From Bacillota bacterium (GTDB lineage Bacteria; Bacillota; Proteinivoracia; UBA4975): a stretch of DNA of 64,000 nt. Numbering within the stretch: the first letter of the stretch is position 1; each line of letters starts with the position of its first letter. The DNA is taken from positions 1,059,185 to 1,123,184 of the forward strand of contig JBMNFF010000001.1 in NCBI GenBank assembly GCA_050949165.1, in the 5' to 3' direction. Below are positions 4,801-59,258 of the stretch, in pieces. The position numbers were made by a program, and so were the translations under genes. The notes below the pieces were generated by a model. The model had not been told where the DNA came from. It saw only the letters and a list, made by a program, of their open reading frames with translations, and made no database searches.

Positions 4801-4850
4801 GGGGACGGGACTTTTCGTTTCACCGACCTGAAACGAAAAGCCCCGTCCCC
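4801..4850 (-). terminator. GC-rich hairpin (about 21-bp arms, 6-nt loop) between transketolase stop and tdh; probable terminator; GGGGACGG-type palindrome
   Basis: ggggacgggacttttcgtttca / tgaaacgaaaagccccgtcccc inverted repeat 8 nt after the tkt stop, followed by T-rich tract on the minus strand. Confidence 0.6.
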
Positions 4851-8222: not shown

Positions 8223-9336
8223 CTACTGCCCCTCCCCGTAGCCTGCTTGCCAGCGCAGCCAGGCGTCAATAAACACATCCACATCTCCGTCCAGGACGGC
8301 GTTGGCATTGCCCACCTCCACATTGGTCCGGTGGTCTTTGACCAGGCTGTAAGGATGAAACACATAGGAGCGAATTTGGCTGCCCCACCCGATTTCCCGC
8401 TGTTCGCCTCGAATCCTGGCCAATTCTGCCTCCTGCTCCTGGCGCTGGCGGTCGGCCAGCTTGGCCTGGAGAATCTTCATGGCAGCCAGCCGGTTGGCGT
8501 GCTGGGAGCGTTCATTCTGGCAGGAGACAACTATCCCCGTGGGCAGGTGGGTGATCCGCACCGCCGAGTCGGTGGTGTTGACATGCTGCCCCCCGGCGCC
8601 GCTGGACCGGAAGGTATCAATGCGCAGGTCGTCGGGATTGATTTCGATTTCCGAATCCTCACTGACCTCGGGAATGACATCCAGGGAGGCAAAGGAAGTG
8701 TGGCGCCGCCCCGAAGAGTCAAAGGGAGAAATCCGCACCAGGCGGTGGACTCCCTTCTCGGCCTTGAGATGCCCGAAGGCATACTCGCCCTTGATCAGCA
8801 GAGTCACGCTCTTGATTCCCGCCTCTTCATCGGGCAGGTAGTCCAGGATTTCCACCCCGAACTTATGCTTCTCCGCCCAGCGGGTGTACATGCGCATCAG
8901 CATCTCCGTCCAGTCCTGGGACTCCAGGCCCCCGGCCCCGGAATGCAGGGAGATGATGGCGTTGTTGCGGTCATACTTGCCGCCCAGGAGTTGGGTCAGC
9001 TCCAATTGGCTGAGCTCTGCCCGCAGCGCTTCCAAGCCCTGACCGATCTCGGCCGCCAGTTCCGCCTCGTCCTCGGCCAGGGCCAGCTCGGTAAGCTCCG
9101 CCAATTCCTGCCAATCCCCCTGGAGCTTGGTCCAGGCATCGGTAACCCGGCGCAGGGAATTGACCTGGCTGATGACGGCTTGGGCCTGCTGTTGATCATC
9201 CCAAAAGTCGGCCCCGGACATTTTGGCTTCCAGCTTCTCTACTTCCCTGAGCTTGGCGGGGAGGTCAAAGGGAGACCCCCATTTCCTCGATTCTCTTGCC
9301 AAGCTGCTGAAGTTCAGACCTGTATTCGCTTAGCAA
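8223..9336 (-). CDS. prfB: peptide chain release factor 2 (requires programmed +1 frameshift)
   Basis: RF2 core incl. SGAGGQHVN; frame-0 leader [23 protein letters not shown] ends at in-frame TGA within CTT TGA C (9264-9270, minus strand); TTG start at 9336 with GAGG RBS. Confidence 0.9.
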
Positions 9337-9361: not shown

Positions 9362-9444
9362 CGCGACAACGGGGACGCTTCTCCCTGTCGCGGTTGTCAT
9401 TCATCGCCGCCGACGCGACAGGGAGAAGCGTCCCCGCTGTCGCG
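9362..9444. repeat. nested palindromic element: two 31-bp arms (CGCGACA..GGGGACGC..TGTCGCG) that are near-perfect reverse complements, 21-bp spacer
   Basis: arms 9362-9392 and 9414-9444 differ at one position from perfect inverted repeat; lies in secA-prfB intergenic region. Confidence 0.75.
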
Positions 9445-9445
9445 C

Positions 9446-11950
9446 CTACTGCCCGCAGCAGCGCTTGTACTTCTTGCCACTGCCGCAGGGGCAGGGATCG
9501 TTGCGACCCACCTTTTTGGCGGCCTGCTTGGGCCCGTGGACTGCGGCGCCGCCGCTGGGCGGAGTGGGATTGGCCACTGCCACTGAACGGCGCACCGGCT
9601 GGCTGACCAGGCGCACCCGCATGATCAAGCGGGCCACTTCTTCTTGGATGCTCTCGGTCATATTGTTAAACATATCGTAGGCTTCGAACTTGTACTCCGT
9701 CAGGGGGTCCTTCTGACCGTAGGCCCTGAGGCCGATGCCCTGACGCAGGTCGTCCATGGCGTCCAGCTGCTCCATCCACTTCCTGTCCACGGTGCGCAGC
9801 ACCACCACCCGCTCCAATTCCCGCATGGCTTCGGAGCCGATGGTCTTCTCGCGGAACTCGTAGAGGGAACGAGCCCTGGCCTCCAGCCACTCCCGGATCT
9901 CGTCGTGGATTTTGCCCTCCAGGTCTTCCACCTTGACGCTGCCCGGGACCAGGACGCTGTTCTCGATATATTCTACCAGCCCCTTGAGGTCGTATTCCTC
10001 GGGGTACACTTCCTTGCTGGCCCAGGTATCCACCGCCCGGGCAATCACTTCGTCCATCATCTTGAGGATCTGCCCCTTGAGGTCTTCGCCCTCCAGGATC
10101 TGGCGGCGCTGCCGATAGATGATGTCCCTCTGTTGGTTGAGGACATCGTCATATTCCAGGACATGCTTGCGGATGTCAAAGTTGCGGGCCTCAACCCGCT
10201 TCTGGGCCGATTCGATGGCCCTGGAAAGCAGGGGATGGTCGATGGGCATAGAGTCGTCCATGCCCAGTTTTTCCAACATGCCCATGTAGCGCTCCGAGCC
10301 GAAGAGGCGCATGAGGTCGTCTTCCAGGGAGATGAAGAATTGAGACGAGCCGGGATCCCCTTGGCGCCCGGAACGCCCCCGGAGCTGGTTGTCGATTCTC
10401 CGGGCCTCATGGCGCTCGGTGCCCAGGATGTGCAGGCCGCCCAGGTCGGCAACCCCTTCCCCCAGGACGATGTCGGTGCCCCGACCCGCCATGTTGGTGG
10501 CGATGGTCACGGCGCCCCTCTGACCGGCCCCGGCCACGATTTCCGCCTCCCGCTCGTGATGCTTGGCGTTGAGGACGCTGTGGGGGACCCCCCGCCGCTT
10601 GAGCATGGCGCTGAGGAGCTCCGACCTCTCGATGGATATGGTCCCCACCAGCACCGGCTGCCCGGTACTGTGACGCCGGACAATCTCATCCACCACAGCC
10701 TTGAACTTGCCTGCCTCGCTGCGATAGACGGCGTCGGGCAAATCCTGGCGGATCATGGGCCGATTGGTGGGAATTACCACCACATCCATGCCGTAGATCT
10801 TGCGGAACTCGTCCTCTTCGGTCTTGGCCGTTCCCGTCATGCCGGCAAGCTTTTTATACATGCGGAAGTAATTTTGCAGGGTAATGCTGGCCAGGGTCTG
10901 GCTCTCCCGCTCTATCTTGACATTTTCCTTGGCCTCGATGGCCTGGTGCAAACCGTTGGAATAGCGGCGCCCAAACATCAGGCGACCGGTAAATTCGTCG
11001 ACGATGATGACCTGGCCATCCTTGACCACATAGTCCCGGTCCCGCTTCATCAGAACGTGGGCCCGCAGGGCCTGGTTGACATGGTGGGAAACTTCCATAT
11101 TTTCAGGGTCATACAGATTCTCGATATTCAAGGCCTGCTCGATTTTGGCCACGCCCTCTTCCGTCAGGGCGACGTTGCGGGCCTTTTCATCAACTATGTA
11201 GTCAACTTCATTGCGGAGCCTCGGCACCAGCCGGGCATAGCGGTAGTACTGGCTGGTATCCTGATCGACGGCGCCGGATATGATCAAGGGGGTCCGGGCC
11301 TCGTCGATGAGGATGCTGTCCACCTCGTCGACGATGGCAAAGTGCAGGGGCCGTTGCACCAGGTTTTCCTTGTACAGCACCATATTGTCCCGCAGGTAGT
11401 CAAAGCCGAATTCATTATTGGTGCCGTAGGTAATATCAGCCAGGTAGGACTGGCGGCGTTGGCCCGGGTCGAGGCCGTGAACAATCAGGCCCACATTCAA
11501 ACCCAGCAGTCTGTAAATCTTGCCCATCCATTCACTGTCCCGGCTGGCCAGATAATCGTTGACAGTGACGACGTGAACGCCCTTGCCCTCCAGGGCGTTG
11601 AGATATGTAGGCATGGTGGCCACCAGGGTCTTGCCTTCACCGGTCTTCATCTCGGCGATGCGGCCCTGGTGGAGGACAATGCCGCCCAGGACCTGGACAT
11701 CGTAGTGGCGCTGGCCCAAAGTCCGCTTGGCCCCTTCCCGGACCAGGGCATAGGCCTCCGGCAAGAGGGCGTCCAGCGTTTCTCCCCGGGCCAGGCGTTC
11801 TTTAAACTCCCCGGTCTTAACCGCCAGGCTGTCGGTATTCAGCTTCTCAAATTCGGGTTCCAGGGCGTTGACTTTCTCCACAATGCGCATCAGCGCCTTG
11901 ATTTCCCGGGCGTCATCCCCGGTCAGCAGCCCCTTGATGAACTTAAACAT
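9446..11950 (-). CDS. secA: preprotein translocase ATPase SecA
   Basis: 845-aa ORF with DEAD-like motor motifs and C-terminal zinc-binding [14 protein letters not shown]; start taken at MFKFIKG. Confidence 0.95.
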
Positions 11951-16171: not shown

Positions 16172-16482
16172 TAAAACTTACCTCCAAAAATGATGTAGCT
16201 TGTAAAGCTCGATTCATCCTACCATAGTAAAAAGGCCAATGTCAATTTTACCGAAAAAACTGTCAATGAAGTCCGACAGCTGACCTGGTCTTTGCCCCCA
16301 CACTCGCCTGCTGGAGGGTTCGCGCTAACTACTGCCTCTCTCGGTTTTCCCGGCAGGACTTACTTCTAAGCCGCACCATGCTCGGCAGTTGGTTTTTTTT
16401 GCTGCCTTACGTGGGTCGTTTCGCCTGCGACTGGCCTCGACTTTCAACCACAGACCTGTCAGACATCATTAGAGTAACGTAT

Positions 16483-16734
16483 TCTGACCAAAATTGCAAA
16501 AGCAATTTTGGTCAGAATTGGGGACGGTCCTCAGCCCATTACCCCTTCCCACGGCAGGAGGCCCGTCCCATAAATTGCAAAAGCAATTTTGGTCAGAATT
16601 GGGGACGGTCCTCAGCCCATTACCCCTTCCCACGGCAGGAGGCCCGTCCCATAAATTGCAAAAGCAATTTTGGTCAGAATTAGGGACGGTCCTCAGCCCA
16701 TTACCCCTTCCCGCGGCAGGAGGCCCGCTCCCAT
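16483..16734. repeat. three tandem copies of an 81-bp unit, each containing a palindromic spacer and a GGGGACGG..CCGTCCC inverted repeat
   Basis: units at 16491-16571, 16572-16652, 16653-16733 (third copy with 3-4 substitutions); 34-bp palindrome TCTGACCAAAATTGC-AAAA-GCAATTTTGGTCAGA at 16483-16516. Confidence 0.9.
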
Positions 16735-50403: not shown

Positions 50404-51399
50404 TTAATTGCTGAGTTCCGCCCTAAGCTGCAAGACCTCAGATATGGGAAGCTCAGACACTTGCGCCACTTGCTCAGGAGTAAATCCCAGCCGGAGCGCA
50501 TTTCTGGCTGCTAGTCTCTTTGCCTCCAGAATCCCTTCAGCCCTGCCCTCTGCCCTGCCTTCTGCCCTGCCTTCAACCCGGTACTTCTGCCAGGTTTCCT
50601 GCAAGATTCGTTCAAAATTAGTTATCAATGATTTTCCCCCCTTCCTTCTCAAATGGATCAGGACTCGATCACGGTCGTGTTTCTCCATTCCCTTTAAGAG
50701 TACCTTACCTGTCCACCTAGAAAAACGCCGTACATCTTCTTCCGGCATCTGATCCAAGACTGCAGCAAGCTCACCGATTCCAAACAGCACCTCATCCATC
50801 CCTCTGTGTTGCTCCATATAGAAGACACTACCCATCAAATTGCCCAGGGCAAGCAGCTGGCCCTTGCCATATCTATTTACATCAACGAGGATGTATTTAA
50901 AATCTAATGCGTATTTGCTAAAGAACTGAAATCCTGCCTGACATTGGCTAAAGCTTGTCCCCGCCGTCCATTTGCCTTTCCCATTGTATAGCACGCACGG
51001 GACAATAACCGGCAGAGCGAAACTCCCTTTACAGGCAACCTCATTGAACCAATAATTGCGCCAGATTTCCACCATATACATCAATAAACGAAAGGGCATC
51101 ATTTGATCGACGGTAGATTGCAATTCCAGCAAGAGATAGAAGTATACATCTTGCTCGGCCAAACGAAGCCTGTAGATCAGATCGGCCTCTTGGTGCCGAA
51201 AGTCCTGTAGTATAAAGGATTTTGGAATAAGCATTACGTCTTTCGCCTGAATGCCCTTGACCCACTCTGCCTTAACAAAGGTCTGCAAGAATTGCAGAAA
51301 GGTCGACTTATTGGCCAGCAAATACTTGTACCCCGTATCATGCTTATTGCTGGGGACCGCATATTCCTGGTCTGGCTCCCTAACCAAGGCTAAGGACAT
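50404..51399 (-). CDS. Rpn-family (YhgA-like, PD-(D/E)XK) recombination-promoting nuclease / putative transposase
   Basis: N-terminal HDxxYKxL and nuclease core pattern, C-terminal repeat-containing domain (EGRA x3-4 then LGFTPEQVA...LP) as in E. coli Rpn proteins; start moved to MSLALV at 51399. Confidence 0.7.
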   Translation of the reverse strand: MSLALVREPDQEYAVPSNKHDTGYKYLLANKSTFLQFLQTFVKAEWVKGIQAKDVMLIPKSFILQDFRHQEADLIYRLRLAEQDVYFYLLLELQSTVDQMMPFRLLMYMVEIWRNYWFNEVACKGSFALPVIVPCVLYNGKGKWTAGTSFSQCQAGFQFFSKYALDFKYILVDVNRYGKGQLLALGNLMGSVFYMEQHRGMDEVLFGIGELAAVLDQMPEEDVRRFSRWTGKVLLKGMEKHDRDRVLIHLRRKGGKSLITNFERILQETWQKYRVEGRAEGRAEGRAEGILEAKRLAARNALRLGFTPEQVAQVSELPISEVLQLRAELSN

Positions 51400-51524
51400 A
51401 GTAGCCGCCGCCTTAATAATAATGTTAGCACAGTTTCCAATAATATAATATAGGAACACGTGTTCCCTGTCTAGCTTATCTTTTCTCTGATGGTAGCAGA
51501 AATAGAGTCTCCAATTAAGCGGGT

Positions 51525-51773
51525 GGGGCTGTCGCAAAATGAGATATTCGTACATATTCTCCCGAAAATCTCTCCGGGTAGGGGCCGAAAGTATAAAGAA
51601 GGAGCTGTCGCAAAACTAAATCTCCGCGCATATTACCTCAAGAAAATCTCTGTGGGTGGGGGCCAAAAGATCCCCCTATAAAGGTAATCCAATGTAGGGG
51701 CGGGTTTTCCCGCCCGACTCACAAGAATGGCTAATTGGGGAATATGGCGGATTGCCAGTTTTGCGACAGCCCC
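51525..51773. mobile_element. MITE-like element bounded by inverted GGGGCTGTCGCAAAA(T/C) termini, with internal partial duplication
   Basis: left terminus 51525-51541, internal direct copy 51601-51616, inverted right terminus 51758-51773; no ORF. Confidence 0.55.
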
Positions 51774-51779
51774 TTGCTT

Positions 51780-53702
51780 TTACGCCAAGGCCTTTTCTAT
51801 TTCCGCCATGGCCCTTTCCTCCAGGTCGCAGCATTGCCGGACCAAGGCGAGGACCGCCGGAGCCTTGCCAGGGTCAAAGGCCTGGCCCCCGGGCCCGGTA
51901 AAGGGGACCAAGCGGGTTATCTCCTGGTAATTCGCTGCCACCTGGCGGTAGAGGTCAATTGTACCCTCCAGGCCCTTTAGTTCACCGGACCGGGCGGCAA
52001 CATACTCCAGGTATTTGGCGATGCAGGCCTTGGAGTCAGCATAGACGTTGAGATTATAGGCCAGGCCGAAGGGGTCGTAATCTCCCCGTTCCAAAGTGCT
52101 TATGAGATTGGCATAGGCCTTTCTGCCGCAGGCATACCCGGGAGTCGAGTGCTGCTCTTTATTCCACTCCCTCAAGCCGTATTCCAGGGAATCCCGATAG
52201 ATCTTCTCCGGGTCGACCTCCACCCTGCCCTTGAGAATCTGCACAAACAGGTATGGAACCTCGGATATGCCCAGGTTGCCATAGCTCAAGGGATCCGGAT
52301 CTGAGTTGAGGCAATCTTGAACAAACAAAACTTCATCGCCGTCATCATAACCGTCAATCAGGCCAAATTCCAGGAGACCTGTCGGCGCCCAGGTGATCGC
52401 CGGCACCCCCCTGGCTATGGATGCTTTGATCTTTGCCAGGGCATCCTCCTGAATCATATGGAAAGTGTTGAGCCTGGGGTCCCTGAAGACCAGGACTATT
52501 TCGCTGTGCACGCCAATCCTGTCCAGCATGGTGAAATGCTCCATCCCCCAGTCGTACACCGTCACCGAGCTGGGGCAGGCCGTTTCGTGCACGATGAAGT
52601 GAAAGGCCATCCCCGTCATGCCCATGAGTTTATAGATCTCGTCCTGCCACCACTCCACCTTGCGCAAAGCGCCGTCCACGCTGGCGATATATGAGTTCCA
52701 GGTCATTCCCATCTTCGCACCCAGTCGCATTGCCGCATCAGTACCTCCTTTAACAGGTTGTGGCTCCATTATAATCGACGGGGTAGGACATAAAGTGTCG
52801 CACCCCTCAGGCATATTTGCCAAAATCATCTTTTGTAGCCTGGAACAGAAGCGCTGCCGTAACCAGCGGGGTGAAAGAAGGGTAAATTGTTCTACCCCGG
52901 CTATAATTGCCGCCAGAAATTTGCTGGAATTTGTGAATTCCACTCTGTAGACCTGAGGCTCTCCAGAGGGAGATACCCGCAGCCCCGCCTTTCTCAACTG
53001 ATTCTCCCCCTGGGTTTTTACAAGGGCCACATAAGGCCTGCGGTAGTTAAAGTCATCTTTATATTCCTCCGGATCAAACCAGGGAACGATGGTAAACTCC
53101 TCGTCCCGAACCAGGGCGCCTCTTATCCGCTCCAGTTTAAAGATGCGGACCTCCCCGCGGAGTTCACAATACCCGACCACATAATTGCCATCCCCCTGAC
53201 AGAAGAATTTATAGGGGCAGATGATCCTGCGGGATTTTACCCCCGCGGCGCTGACATACTCTATCTCAACTTTATGCCTCGATTGCATGGCTTTGCTGAG
53301 GAGCTTATATGCCCTGACCTCCCGGGGACCGGGATTGATAATTGGTAAATTCCTCTCGCCTTCGCAGTTTCCTTCCCCGCCCAAGCGGGCAAAGAGTTGG
53401 GCCAACTGCCGGGCCTGTCCACCTTCCCTGTTTCGGTAGTGGAAGGCCAGGTAATCCAGGGTGGCCTTTTCTTCTGCCGAAATAAAATTGGCCGGCAGGA
53501 TAAAAGCTCCCCCTCGGTAAAAATACCCGTTGTTCCTGGGACAATATGCAACGGGCGCCCCCAGGGAGTAGCGCAAGTACTCAATATCCCGGGAAGCCTG
53601 GCGGGTAGAAATCTCAAATTCCTCGGCAATAATTCGGCAATTGGGATACCTGCCATGGCGAATCTGCTGGTCAATCCAGAGTATCCTGTGTAAGCTGCTC
53701 AT
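51780..53702 (-). CDS. HTH-WYL domain regulator fused to about 340-aa uncharacterised C-terminal domain
   Basis: N-terminal HTH (NCRIIAEEFEISTRQASRDIEYL), WYL-type beta domain (RRIICPYKFFCQGDGNYVVGYCELRGEVRIFKLERI), continuous 640-aa ORF; ATG with GGGGGTGA RBS. Confidence 0.65.
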   Translation of the reverse strand: MSSLHRILWIDQQIRHGRYPNCRIIAEEFEISTRQASRDIEYLRYSLGAPVAYCPRNNGYFYRGGAFILPANFISAEEKATLDYLAFHYRNREGGQARQLAQLFARLGGEGNCEGERNLPIINPGPREVRAYKLLSKAMQSRHKVEIEYVSAAGVKSRRIICPYKFFCQGDGNYVVGYCELRGEVRIFKLERIRGALVRDEEFTIVPWFDPEEYKDDFNYRRPYVALVKTQGENQLRKAGLRVSPSGEPQVYRVEFTNSSKFLAAIIAGVEQFTLLSPRWLRQRFCSRLQKMILANMPEGCDTLCPTPSIIMEPQPVKGGTDAAMRLGAKMGMTWNSYIASVDGALRKVEWWQDEIYKLMGMTGMAFHFIVHETACPSSVTVYDWGMEHFTMLDRIGVHSEIVLVFRDPRLNTFHMIQEDALAKIKASIARGVPAITWAPTGLLEFGLIDGYDDGDEVLFVQDCLNSDPDPLSYGNLGISEVPYLFVQILKGRVEVDPEKIYRDSLEYGLREWNKEQHSTPGYACGRKAYANLISTLERGDYDPFGLAYNLNVYADSKACIAKYLEYVAARSGELKGLEGTIDLYRQVAANYQEITRLVPFTGPGGQAFDPGKAPAVLALVRQCCDLEERAMAEIEKALA

Positions 53703-58316: not shown

Positions 58317-58805
58317 TTACCTTCTCTTCAAATACAGGGCCAGGCCTCCGACCACAGCCAATACCGCCAGACCGCCTGCCGCCCAGATGAATGCCCCATT
58401 GGAATTGGAAATAGGCGCCGCCTCAATCGGTTCGGCATCATCCAGCTCTACATCCAGGTCCTCGGCGCCGGACAGGATTGTAAAGATGGGGTTCTCCGCC
58501 TGGGCATCGGCCTCGGCCTGGACCAGCTGCTGATATTCTTCCTCCCCCAGGATGACCTCCCGGGGCACATCGACATGGACGGTAACCGACTGGTCGTCCT
58601 TGACCAGGACGATGTTGAAGACCTCCCGGCCCAGAGCGACAAAATCCTGGACCCAGCTTTCCGAAACCTCGTAGCCGGGATATTCCTCCAGGGCCAGCCC
58701 ATGCAGGCGATTCTGCACCTCTTCGGGCAATATCCGCAAGACGGCGGAGGCTGGGGCGACGGCCAGCACCAGGATAATAGCGGTAAGAACCAACAAGCGT
58801 TTCAT
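58317..58805 (-). CDS. secreted protein with N-terminal signal peptide and C-terminal hydrophobic anchor plus KRR tail
   Basis: start MKRLLVLTAIIL with GAAGGAGG RBS; acidic central region; C-terminus ...GGLAVLAVVGGLALYLKRR. Confidence 0.6.
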   Translation of the reverse strand: MKRLLVLTAIILVLAVAPASAVLRILPEEVQNRLHGLALEEYPGYEVSESWVQDFVALGREVFNIVLVKDDQSVTVHVDVPREVILGEEEYQQLVQAEADAQAENPIFTILSGAEDLDVELDDAEPIEAAPISNSNGAFIWAAGGLAVLAVVGGLALYLKRR

Positions 58806-58875
58806 GTTTTTTCCTCCTTCACGCCAGTTTACAATAGGACGCCGAAGCCGGGCAATTGGTTCATTCATAAAGAAC

Positions 58876-58976
58876 GGGGCTGCCGCAAAATGTCCCCCTG
58901 TCATATTGGAAAGCCCGCCCTGCCGGGAATGTCCCGCAGCGGGCAATATGCAGAGATATCATTTTGCGACAGCCCC
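58876..58976. mobile_element. MITE-like element, second copy (GGGGCTGCCGCAAAATG ... CATTTTGCGACAGCCCC)
   Basis: 17-bp inverted termini at 58876-58892 and 58960-58976; same terminal motif as 51525-51773. Confidence 0.5.
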
Positions 58977-59258
58977 TATATTAACAAGCGCCCTGATGTC
59001 CAGCGATTCGGCAACCTGCCGCGGGTACCGCTATGGCGGCAAGAAATCGCCGAACGGGCGCTTGGTGGCAGGAAATTGTCCTGACTGTTGGGGGAAGGAA
59101 ATAGTGGGGGCAACTCCTGCCTGCTTTATTCTATTACCTGGTTCGCCCCATGGTGCTAGACATTGACCCCAGGCCGCCTGACACCCACGACCCTCCTAAG
59201 GCATAAAAAAACAGAGGTCAGCAACCCGCATCAATTCCGGGCTCCGACCTCCTTGCCT

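Follow-up and report, generated by a model that had tools for sequence, protein, structure and literature searches.

An apparently lineage-specific palindromic repeat at two intrinsic-terminator positions in an uncultured Bacillota genome

The window analysed here is a stretch of 64,000 nt from the genome of a member of the Bacillota, and two of its intergenic spaces hold related elements, which we call copies A and B (Table 1). Copy A begins 6 nt past the stop codon (51780-51782) of a gene for a WYL-domain regulator and lies between that codon and the promoter of an Rpn / Transposase_31 gene. Copy B is located between a phnE-like permease gene, followed by a conserved noncoding stretch, and a gene for a secreted protein of 162 aa. 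All relevant genes around the two copies are on the minus strand, and a Crp-family regulator gene is also among the neighbours. The window lies within a 1.1-Mb metagenome contig of JGI and is matched by an NCBI metagenome-assembled genome. For comparison we used nine syntenic loci from related uncultured species (124 kb in all, labelled with L and a number), to which proteins homologous to Rpn, to WYL and to the 162-aa product had led.

Table 1. Positions of the two elements, their repeat units and the adjoining features in the window
Feature	Position	Strand	Remarks
Rpn / Transposase_31 gene, short model	50404-51399	-	331 aa
Rpn promoter-like TAGACA-17-TATTAT	51473..51445	-	GAAC-N4-GTTC box at 51452-51467
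Copy A	51525-51773	-	249 bp; three units: u1, u2 direct, u3 inverted
Unit u1	51525-51600	+	additional copy of the u2 unit, in tandem with a period of 76 nt; placed downstream of the U-tract
15-mer of u1	51525-51539	+	exact
CATATT block of u1	51553-51558	+	unit alignment
U-rich tract UUCUUUAUAC	51591-51600	-	directly 3' of the copy A inner hairpin; 11/14 match to the L094 flank
Copy A inner hairpin	51601-51773	-	173 nt, -81.4 kcal/mol; u3 = 5' arm and u2 = 3' arm on the transcribed strand
15-mer of u2	51601-51615	+	one mismatch
CATATT block of u2	51629-51634		unit alignment
AATATG block of u3	51741-51746		unit alignment
15-mer of u3	51759-51773	-	exact
WYL-domain regulator gene	51780-53702	-	640 aa
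Gene for 162-aa signal-peptide protein	58317-58805	-	70 nt downstream of copy B
U-rich tract GUUCUUUAUG	58866-58875	-	3' of copy B; native flank, homologous to GTCTTTATAG in L091
Copy B	58876-58976	-	two inverted units, 101-nt hairpin; u5 = 5' arm, u4 = 3' arm
15-mer of u4	58876-58890	+	one mismatch
CATATT block of u4	58902-58907		unit alignment
AATATG block of u5	58945-58950		unit alignment
15-mer of u5	58962-58976	-	exact
Structured noncoding RNA candidate	58977-59133	-	3' end abuts copy B; ordinary terminator follows in relatives

The genes beside copy A vary among the relatives. The interval from the gene for a Trx_3 (thioredoxin-like) protein to the Crp-family gene, at 50404-53702 in the window, is a hotspot of gene content across L075, L076, L078, L080, L091, L092, L094 and L096, in which it holds WYL only, Rpn only, WYL with MazE/PemK, a split WYL gene with Rpn, or extra genes; in L091 the last codons and the terminator remain of a deleted Rpn gene. 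The C-terminal half of the WYL protein, about 315 aa, has no Pfam match. Because L094 encodes this half as a separate gene of 318 aa (8315-9271; 70% identical), a separable effector or sensor domain in the WYL protein is suggested.

The elements are built from a common repeat unit. Five matches to the 15-mer GGGGCTGTCGCAAAA with no more than one mismatch were found in the window, all of them within copy A or copy B, compared to 0.007 expected from base composition; the remaining matches all have three mismatches, as would be expected by chance. The repeat that the preliminary description had reported at these two places is thus real, as are its inverted termini: the repeat finder paired the outer ends of copy A at 15 of 15 positions and gave copy B arms of 17 nt with one mismatch. 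Alignment of the five units revealed that CATATT is common to all of them, 11-13 nt inside the 15-mer. The full unit, GGGGCTGTCGCAAAA followed by 11-13 variable bases and CATATT, is about 35-45 nt long, which is more than had been seen before, and an nhmmer profile of it (in short form GGRGCTGYCGCAAAA-N11-13-CATATT) matched u1 to u5 alone in the window. Spacing between the two blocks is nearly constant, and the gap between inverted units is 71 nt in one element and 143 nt in the other. Neither the 15-mer nor the 15-mer with its CATATT block has internal dyad symmetry; the hairpin is formed by paired units alone. The unit begins GGGGCTG and carries a GTAG or CGTC tag at neither end, and the elements end in GGGGCTG.../...CAGCCCC. 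Copies A and B have only these feet and CATATT in common, their spacers and interiors being unrelated; GC content is 49.8% in copy A, 59.4% in copy B and 59.1% in the window.

The internal direct copy of the terminus previously noted in copy A proved to be part of a tandem duplication of 76-78 nt (51525-51600, repeated from 51601 to about 51678 with 70-82% identity). When u1 is set against u2, the 15-mer agrees at 14 of 15 positions and CATATT at all six, and the 13-nt spacer at only 5 of 13. Because the inverted repeat formed by u2 and u3 (27 nt, 85%; 51591-51617 with 51757-51783) is longer and better than the outer pair, the best hairpin of copy A is the inner one, whose arms reach 27 nt (51591-51783) when the A-tract and the U-tract are included. 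In the NCBI metagenome-assembled genome (MAG) GCA_964472835.1, the end of contig CAYYLV010000038.1 (L008) falls inside copy A, between u2 and u1, and the tandem units of copy A apparently broke this assembly.

The 383-aa open reading frame of Rpn runs through u1, and the preliminary description had taken this in favour of a shorter gene. The shorter model is right: gene calls give 331 aa with a start at 51399, orthologues have 334-336 aa, the Pfam match begins only at residue 70 of the long frame, and that frame encloses a conserved promoter (51445-51473), which contains a GAAC-N4-GTTC box. The palindrome of this promoter sits between the -35 and -10 elements, as GGAACACGTGTTCC in the window and as CGAACATATGTTCT, CGAACAAGCGTTCC and GGAACATACGTTTC in the relatives (L075 and L076, both at about 9925-9965, and L094, at about 9480-9520). 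The box resembles the Gram-positive LexA (Cheo) box, a likeness of sequence that suggests possible SOS control of the Rpn nuclease.

The stretch abutting copy B belongs to a conserved noncoding region of about 150 nt that occurs in five species (the window; L075 4338-4486; L076 6182-6326; L091 2520-2652; L094 3738-3879). It ends in the invariant GCGYTTGTTAATATA, a terminator follows, and in three species a gene for a secreted protein of 157-162 aa comes next. RNAalifold predicted 41 pairs from the five sequences, of which 8 have compensatory changes, and no Rfam family matched the region in the window at E values up to 5. Because the phn operon is not upstream of it in L094, it is an independent unit. 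Judged from its sequence and predicted fold, it is a candidate for a new leader, a riboswitch-like RNA or a small RNA.

Both elements fold much better than shuffled sequences (z = -6.0 to -8.1). On the transcribed strand each reads as an A-tract, a long hairpin, GC-rich over a foot of 15 bp or more, and then (G)UUCUUUAU; on the minus strand the foot and the U-tract are ...GCAGCCCC-GUUCUUUAU at one element and ...ACAGCUCC-UUCUUUAU at the other. The geometry of both elements is that of a bidirectional intrinsic terminator. Both arm mismatches, G3 in u2 and C8 in u4, can pair as G-U wobbles in the transcript, whereas the opposite strand has A-C mismatches in their place. Copy B folds at -63.7 kcal/mol in the sense direction and at -54.1 kcal/mol on the other strand, a sense advantage of 9.6 kcal/mol; the two strands of copy A fold at -87.5 (sense) and -90.6 kcal/mol (antisense), and show no sense advantage. 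Among 10 contigs from different samples neither hairpin was polymorphic. Three variants were found in copy A, all in u1, one of which destroys the CATATT block of that unit, and a fourth variant lies at the Rpn promoter.

Comparison with the relatives revealed what the elements have replaced. The repeat unit is absent from all nine of their loci (124 kb), and at both sites the relatives with the same gene order have an ordinary intrinsic-terminator hairpin of 25-30 nt exactly at the position of the element. At site B, L075, L076, L091 and L094 read ...GCGYTTGTTAATATA / CTGGRCCGGGCT-loop-AGCCCGGYCCAG / GTCTTT..., where slashes mark the junctions and the hairpin (25-29 nt) scores as a terminator, and the window reads ...GCGCTTGTTAATATA / 101-nt element / GTTCTTTATGAATGAAC...; L091 and L094 also share the downstream gene of the window and a homologous right flank. 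At site A, L078, L080 and L094 read GC(G/A)TAA..AAG(A/C)AA / TCCAGGCAG..-loop-..CTGCCTGGA / T-rich, L081 has a diverged form of the same hairpin, and the window reads GCGTAAAAGCAA / GGGGCTGTCGC...GCGACAGCTCC / TTCTTTATAC. The order in L094 is that of the window, with the gene for the WYL C-terminal half followed by the hairpin, a spacer and the Rpn promoter. On the left, the flanking sequence of A and of B is preserved base for base. On the right, homology is clear for site B, and the right junction of copy A is uncertain, since the alignment of its spacer to L094 is marginal (reached by 7 of 500 shuffles). The elements fold at -64 (B) and -81 (A) kcal/mol, compared to -17 to -27 kcal/mol for the terminator hairpins of the relatives. 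A simple terminator scan called the latter and did not call copies A and B, which exceed the dimensions of compact terminator hairpins (stems of 5-20 bp, loops of 3-8 nt), and Rfam has no family at either element, at gathering thresholds or at E up to 5.

These comparisons bear directly on how the elements arrived. Because the flanks are conserved and the old hairpin of 25-30 nt is missing, the resident hairpin was swapped for the element; only short, unconvincing GC-rich resemblances to the ancestral hairpin were seen inside the elements. Because the unit is absent from the relatives, and the ordinary hairpin is present there, the elements are a derived acquisition specific to the window's lineage. 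No target-site duplication of any length was found at either copy when they were compared to the empty sites (L078, L080 and L094 for A; L075, L076, L091 and L094 for B), both flanks at site B, and with more certainty the left than the right one at site A, aligning with those of the relatives and only the old terminator hairpin being gone.

Searches for further copies, and for a source of mobility, covered the source genome to about 18 kb beyond both ends of the window (about 82 kb in total) and several large collections. The profile found no further unit in the 82 kb; one match with three mismatches after serS (L085 2135) had no partner and was dismissed. Since only two loci were seen in this length of the source genome, the term family rests here on n = 2. 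The collection scans used the pattern AATATGN{11,13}TTTTGCGRCAGCYCC, which requires the CATATT block and would let an insertion sequence (IS) that shares only the 15-mer escape. In 185,579 reference genomes (596 Gb) they returned 6 singletons, and in the JGI metagenome collection 4, both at about the chance level and without an inverted partner; because the five units of the window itself were not returned, the source genome is in neither collection. The 15-mer alone gave 54 single matches in viral contigs, again the chance level, blastn with both copies found nothing relevant among plasmids, and in a full-text search of the literature the motif matched nothing but unrelated primers. In the window and its extensions, Pfam revealed no transposase, integrase or HUH gene besides Rpn, and no IS with these termini was present.

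The source genome also contains a second, unrelated hairpin repeat, with the arm GGGGACGGGACTTTTCGTTT, which forms an inverted pair both at 4801-4850 of the window and at 4733-4796 of L085, about 3.7 kb past the right end of the window; 0.01 matches would be expected by chance. Because this second family is present, hairpin repeats scattered in this way are a feature of the source genome.

Palindromic structures of other kinds occur elsewhere in the window. Three perfect palindromes of 38 nt, ATTCTGACCAAAATTGC-AAAA-GCAATTTTGGTCAGAAT, lie about 81-91 nt apart at 16481-16680 and form an operator-like array directly beside a raiA RNA (16271-16464, minus strand). A near-perfect long hairpin with 31-nt arms, 97% complementary, is found at 9362-9444, between a prfB-like gene and secA.

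On balance, we favour the view, with some reserve, that copies A and B are lineage-specific interspersed palindromic repeats that spread without target duplication and now serve as the terminators of the WYL gene and the leader-like RNA. Two inverted units around an unrelated GC-rich interior form a long hairpin (101 nt in B; the 173-nt core in A), which in this lineage has replaced an ordinary terminator hairpin in two unlinked places, one behind the WYL gene and one behind the leader-like RNA that lies downstream of the phn operon. The A-tract upstream and the U-tract downstream, both native, were retained at the replacement, and because they were kept, the transcribed strand reads as a stable GC-footed hairpin followed by (G)UUCUUUAU. 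The element would then act as a Rho-independent terminator and as a structure protecting the 3' ends of those transcripts; from its sequence and position we infer that termination is the most likely function. Copy A may later have gained u1 through a local 76-nt tandem duplication, and u1 appears to be decaying. Because of the wobble asymmetry, and because the hairpins are invariant and the variants fall in u1, the elements are best read as functional terminator replacements and u1 as a decaying by-product. Spread without target duplication could have taken place by microhomology-mediated or hairpin-directed terminator exchange, or through a hairpin-specific enzyme, rather than by cut-and-paste; such an exchange could use the microhomology of the A-tracts and U-tracts, and the Rpn gene is adjacent. 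One observation is left unexplained by a terminator role: u1 has no U-tract and is dispensable for the hairpin, yet its 15-mer and CATATT are conserved. These conserved blocks hint at a possible sequence-specific protein-binding role.

The preliminary description had proposed a MITE-like element of a mobile or recently mobile family. What stands of this reading is a repeated palindrome at two unlinked intergenic sites in one lineage; the hallmarks of a MITE do not. A classical MITE would be a deletion derivative of an IS, moved in trans by a transposase encoded elsewhere that binds the 15-bp termini and the inner CATATT. Its length below 500 bp, perfect 15-bp terminal inverted repeats, intergenic position and absence from the relatives all agree with such an origin, the bipartite terminus resembles the two-domain ends of many IS elements, and a parent IS sharing the 15-mer alone would have been missed by the collection scans because these demanded CATATT. 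However, no duplication accompanies A or B, the resident hairpin was deleted to the base with intact flanks, and the interiors are unrelated, unlike those of copies of one master element, and for these reasons classical transposition is disfavoured. There is also no transposase but Rpn in the window and its extensions, and the unit has only chance matches in the 185,579 genomes, the plasmids and the viral contigs. By the refuting condition that the preliminary description had itself set (two sites only, no flanking duplications, no related IS), the claim fails as far as it is testable. We consider an origin of this kind unlikely, and the element is not a demonstrable transposon. A transposon borne by Rpn was rejected as well, there being no terminus beyond the other side of Rpn and the Rpn orthologues of L075, L076, L094 and L096 having no units. 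Arrival of the element together with the WYL gene or the 162-aa gene, which L075 and L076 suggested, is ruled out by L091 and L094.

Alternatively, a single ectopic event could have put a copy of one terminator hairpin in the place of the other, leaving two sites and no more; the A-tract and U-tract flanks would have recombined illegitimately or through microhomology. As such an event would predict, the 82 kb of source genome contain two loci and the 124 kb from the relatives contain none, both sites in the window share the context A-tract / hairpin / TTCTTTAT, and the adjacent gene encodes a recombination-promoting nuclease, Rpn proteins being known to promote RecA-independent recombination in E. 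coli (PMC5350276). Recent copying should not, however, have left unrelated spacers and interiors, which imply selective retention of the blocks, and neither site looks like a donor, as both differ from the ancestral state; a single event therefore seems improbable to us. The conserved blocks might instead be sites for a sequence-specific DNA-binding protein, with the hairpin being secondary; the protein could be a regulator, or else a recombinase that works on inverted sites in pairs. Units u1 and u2 keep the 15-mer and CATATT while their spacer has drifted, the 11-13 nt between the blocks hardly vary, the 15-mer of u1 is perfect although it lies outside the best hairpin, and regulator genes (WYL, Crp-family) are nearby. 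Against this, the distance between inverted units is not constant, both elements lie exactly at terminator positions and not at promoters, the relatives retain the same regulators without the units, no recombinase is found nearby, and one natural variant has lost the CATATT of u1. Together these points make a primary role as protein sites distinctly unlikely. We rejected the idea that the units are promoters, with CATATT as -10 and the 15-mer as -35, because they point towards one another and run antisense into the 3' ends of genes, and because the Rpn promoter is outside the element. Finally, conserved ends with an interior of variable sequence and length recall an integron-like attC or another cassette recombination site, and WYL, Rpn and MazE come and go in the Trx_3-Crp region as cassettes might. 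The element ends have no RYYYAAC / GTTRRRY core sites, however, and no integrase occurs in the 82 kb. At site B, L091 and L094 have the window's genes to the left and to the right, and at site A L094 has the window's gene order, yet the element is missing in each case; because of this the element does not mark a cassette boundary, and a recombination site of this type is very improbable indeed.

A bolder form of the terminator-replacement reading is that the element moves hairpin for hairpin: a mobile palindrome would seek out intrinsic terminators and exchange their stem-loop exactly, while keeping the A-tracts and U-tracts. We consider this rather unlikely. If true, it would imply a form of terminator-directed mobility that has not been described, by a hairpin-specific nuclease, an HUH enzyme or microhomology recombination of the Rpn type, and would provide a route for terminator turnover in bacterial genomes. 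A new family of small repeats in an uncultured Bacillota MAG is unsurprising by itself, as such repeats are common. It is unusual, however, that both copies can be compared to clean empty sites in several relatives, so that an exact terminator exchange is visible. Further copies with the same pattern would document the spread of a terminator-targeting repeat and a concrete case of terminator replacement in evolution. The elements are also of value for annotation, since they support the short Rpn model, and since the assembly of the NCBI MAG breaks at one of them.

In their location, copies A and B are like Rho-independent terminators: they stand right after a stop codon or an RNA 3' end, with a GC-rich foot beside a U-tract and an A-tract upstream, in the orthologous position of the relatives' terminator hairpins. 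The elements differ from ordinary terminators in being 4-6 times longer, in containing internal loops, and in repeating one foot of 15 bp beside two genes that are not related. MITEs such as RUP, Correia, ERIC and BOX (PMC10969869) share with them a length below 500 bp, terminal inverted repeats, an intergenic location, stable RNA hairpins and the lack of coding capacity, and BOX elements have a tandemly repeated internal module, as u1 and u2 are here. In contrast to MITEs, copies A and B have no target-site duplication, unrelated interiors and no parent IS that we could find in the sequences searched, and are not clearly AT-rich (50-59% GC, with 59% in the window). The likeness to integron attC sites is limited to conserved ends and a variable interior, the core sites and the integrase being absent here.

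REP, BIME and REPIN sequences, which are mobilised by RAYT transposases (Di Nocera et al. 2013, PMC3733652), offer another parallel. REP units and BIMEs are also short, occur singly, in tandem or in inverted pairs that form long hairpins, are extragenic and often at the 3' ends of genes, lack target duplications, and have been proposed to act in termination or mRNA stabilisation. However, the REP unit is itself an imperfect palindrome of 20-40 nt and our unit is not palindromic, it has neither of the tags, GTAG and CGTC, by which two superfamilies of REP are defined (PMC3733652), and no RAYT (Y1 HUH) gene was seen in the 82 kb of the source genome. In behaviour, the closest counterpart of copies A and B appears to be the SPRITE of S. 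pneumoniae, a repeat of about 28% GC with AAAA/TTTT ends that was proposed in 2011 to be co-opted as a terminator (PMC3049150). SPRITE is likewise a low-copy Firmicute repeat with an extra-long stem and a U-rich tract near the 3' ends of genes; no IS shares its termini, a target duplication could not be demonstrated, and it occurs only in one species and the nearest relative of that species (PMC3049150). It differs from the elements described here, which form hairpins of 101-173 nt with a GC-rich foot of 15 bp, an inner CATATT and an unrelated interior, and given its composition no sequence relationship would be expected. For SPRITE, empty sites could not be examined or found (PMC3049150), whereas the empty sites available here show that a resident terminator hairpin was replaced. 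The repeat described here joins the small interspersed palindromic repeats, a broad class, as a new member.
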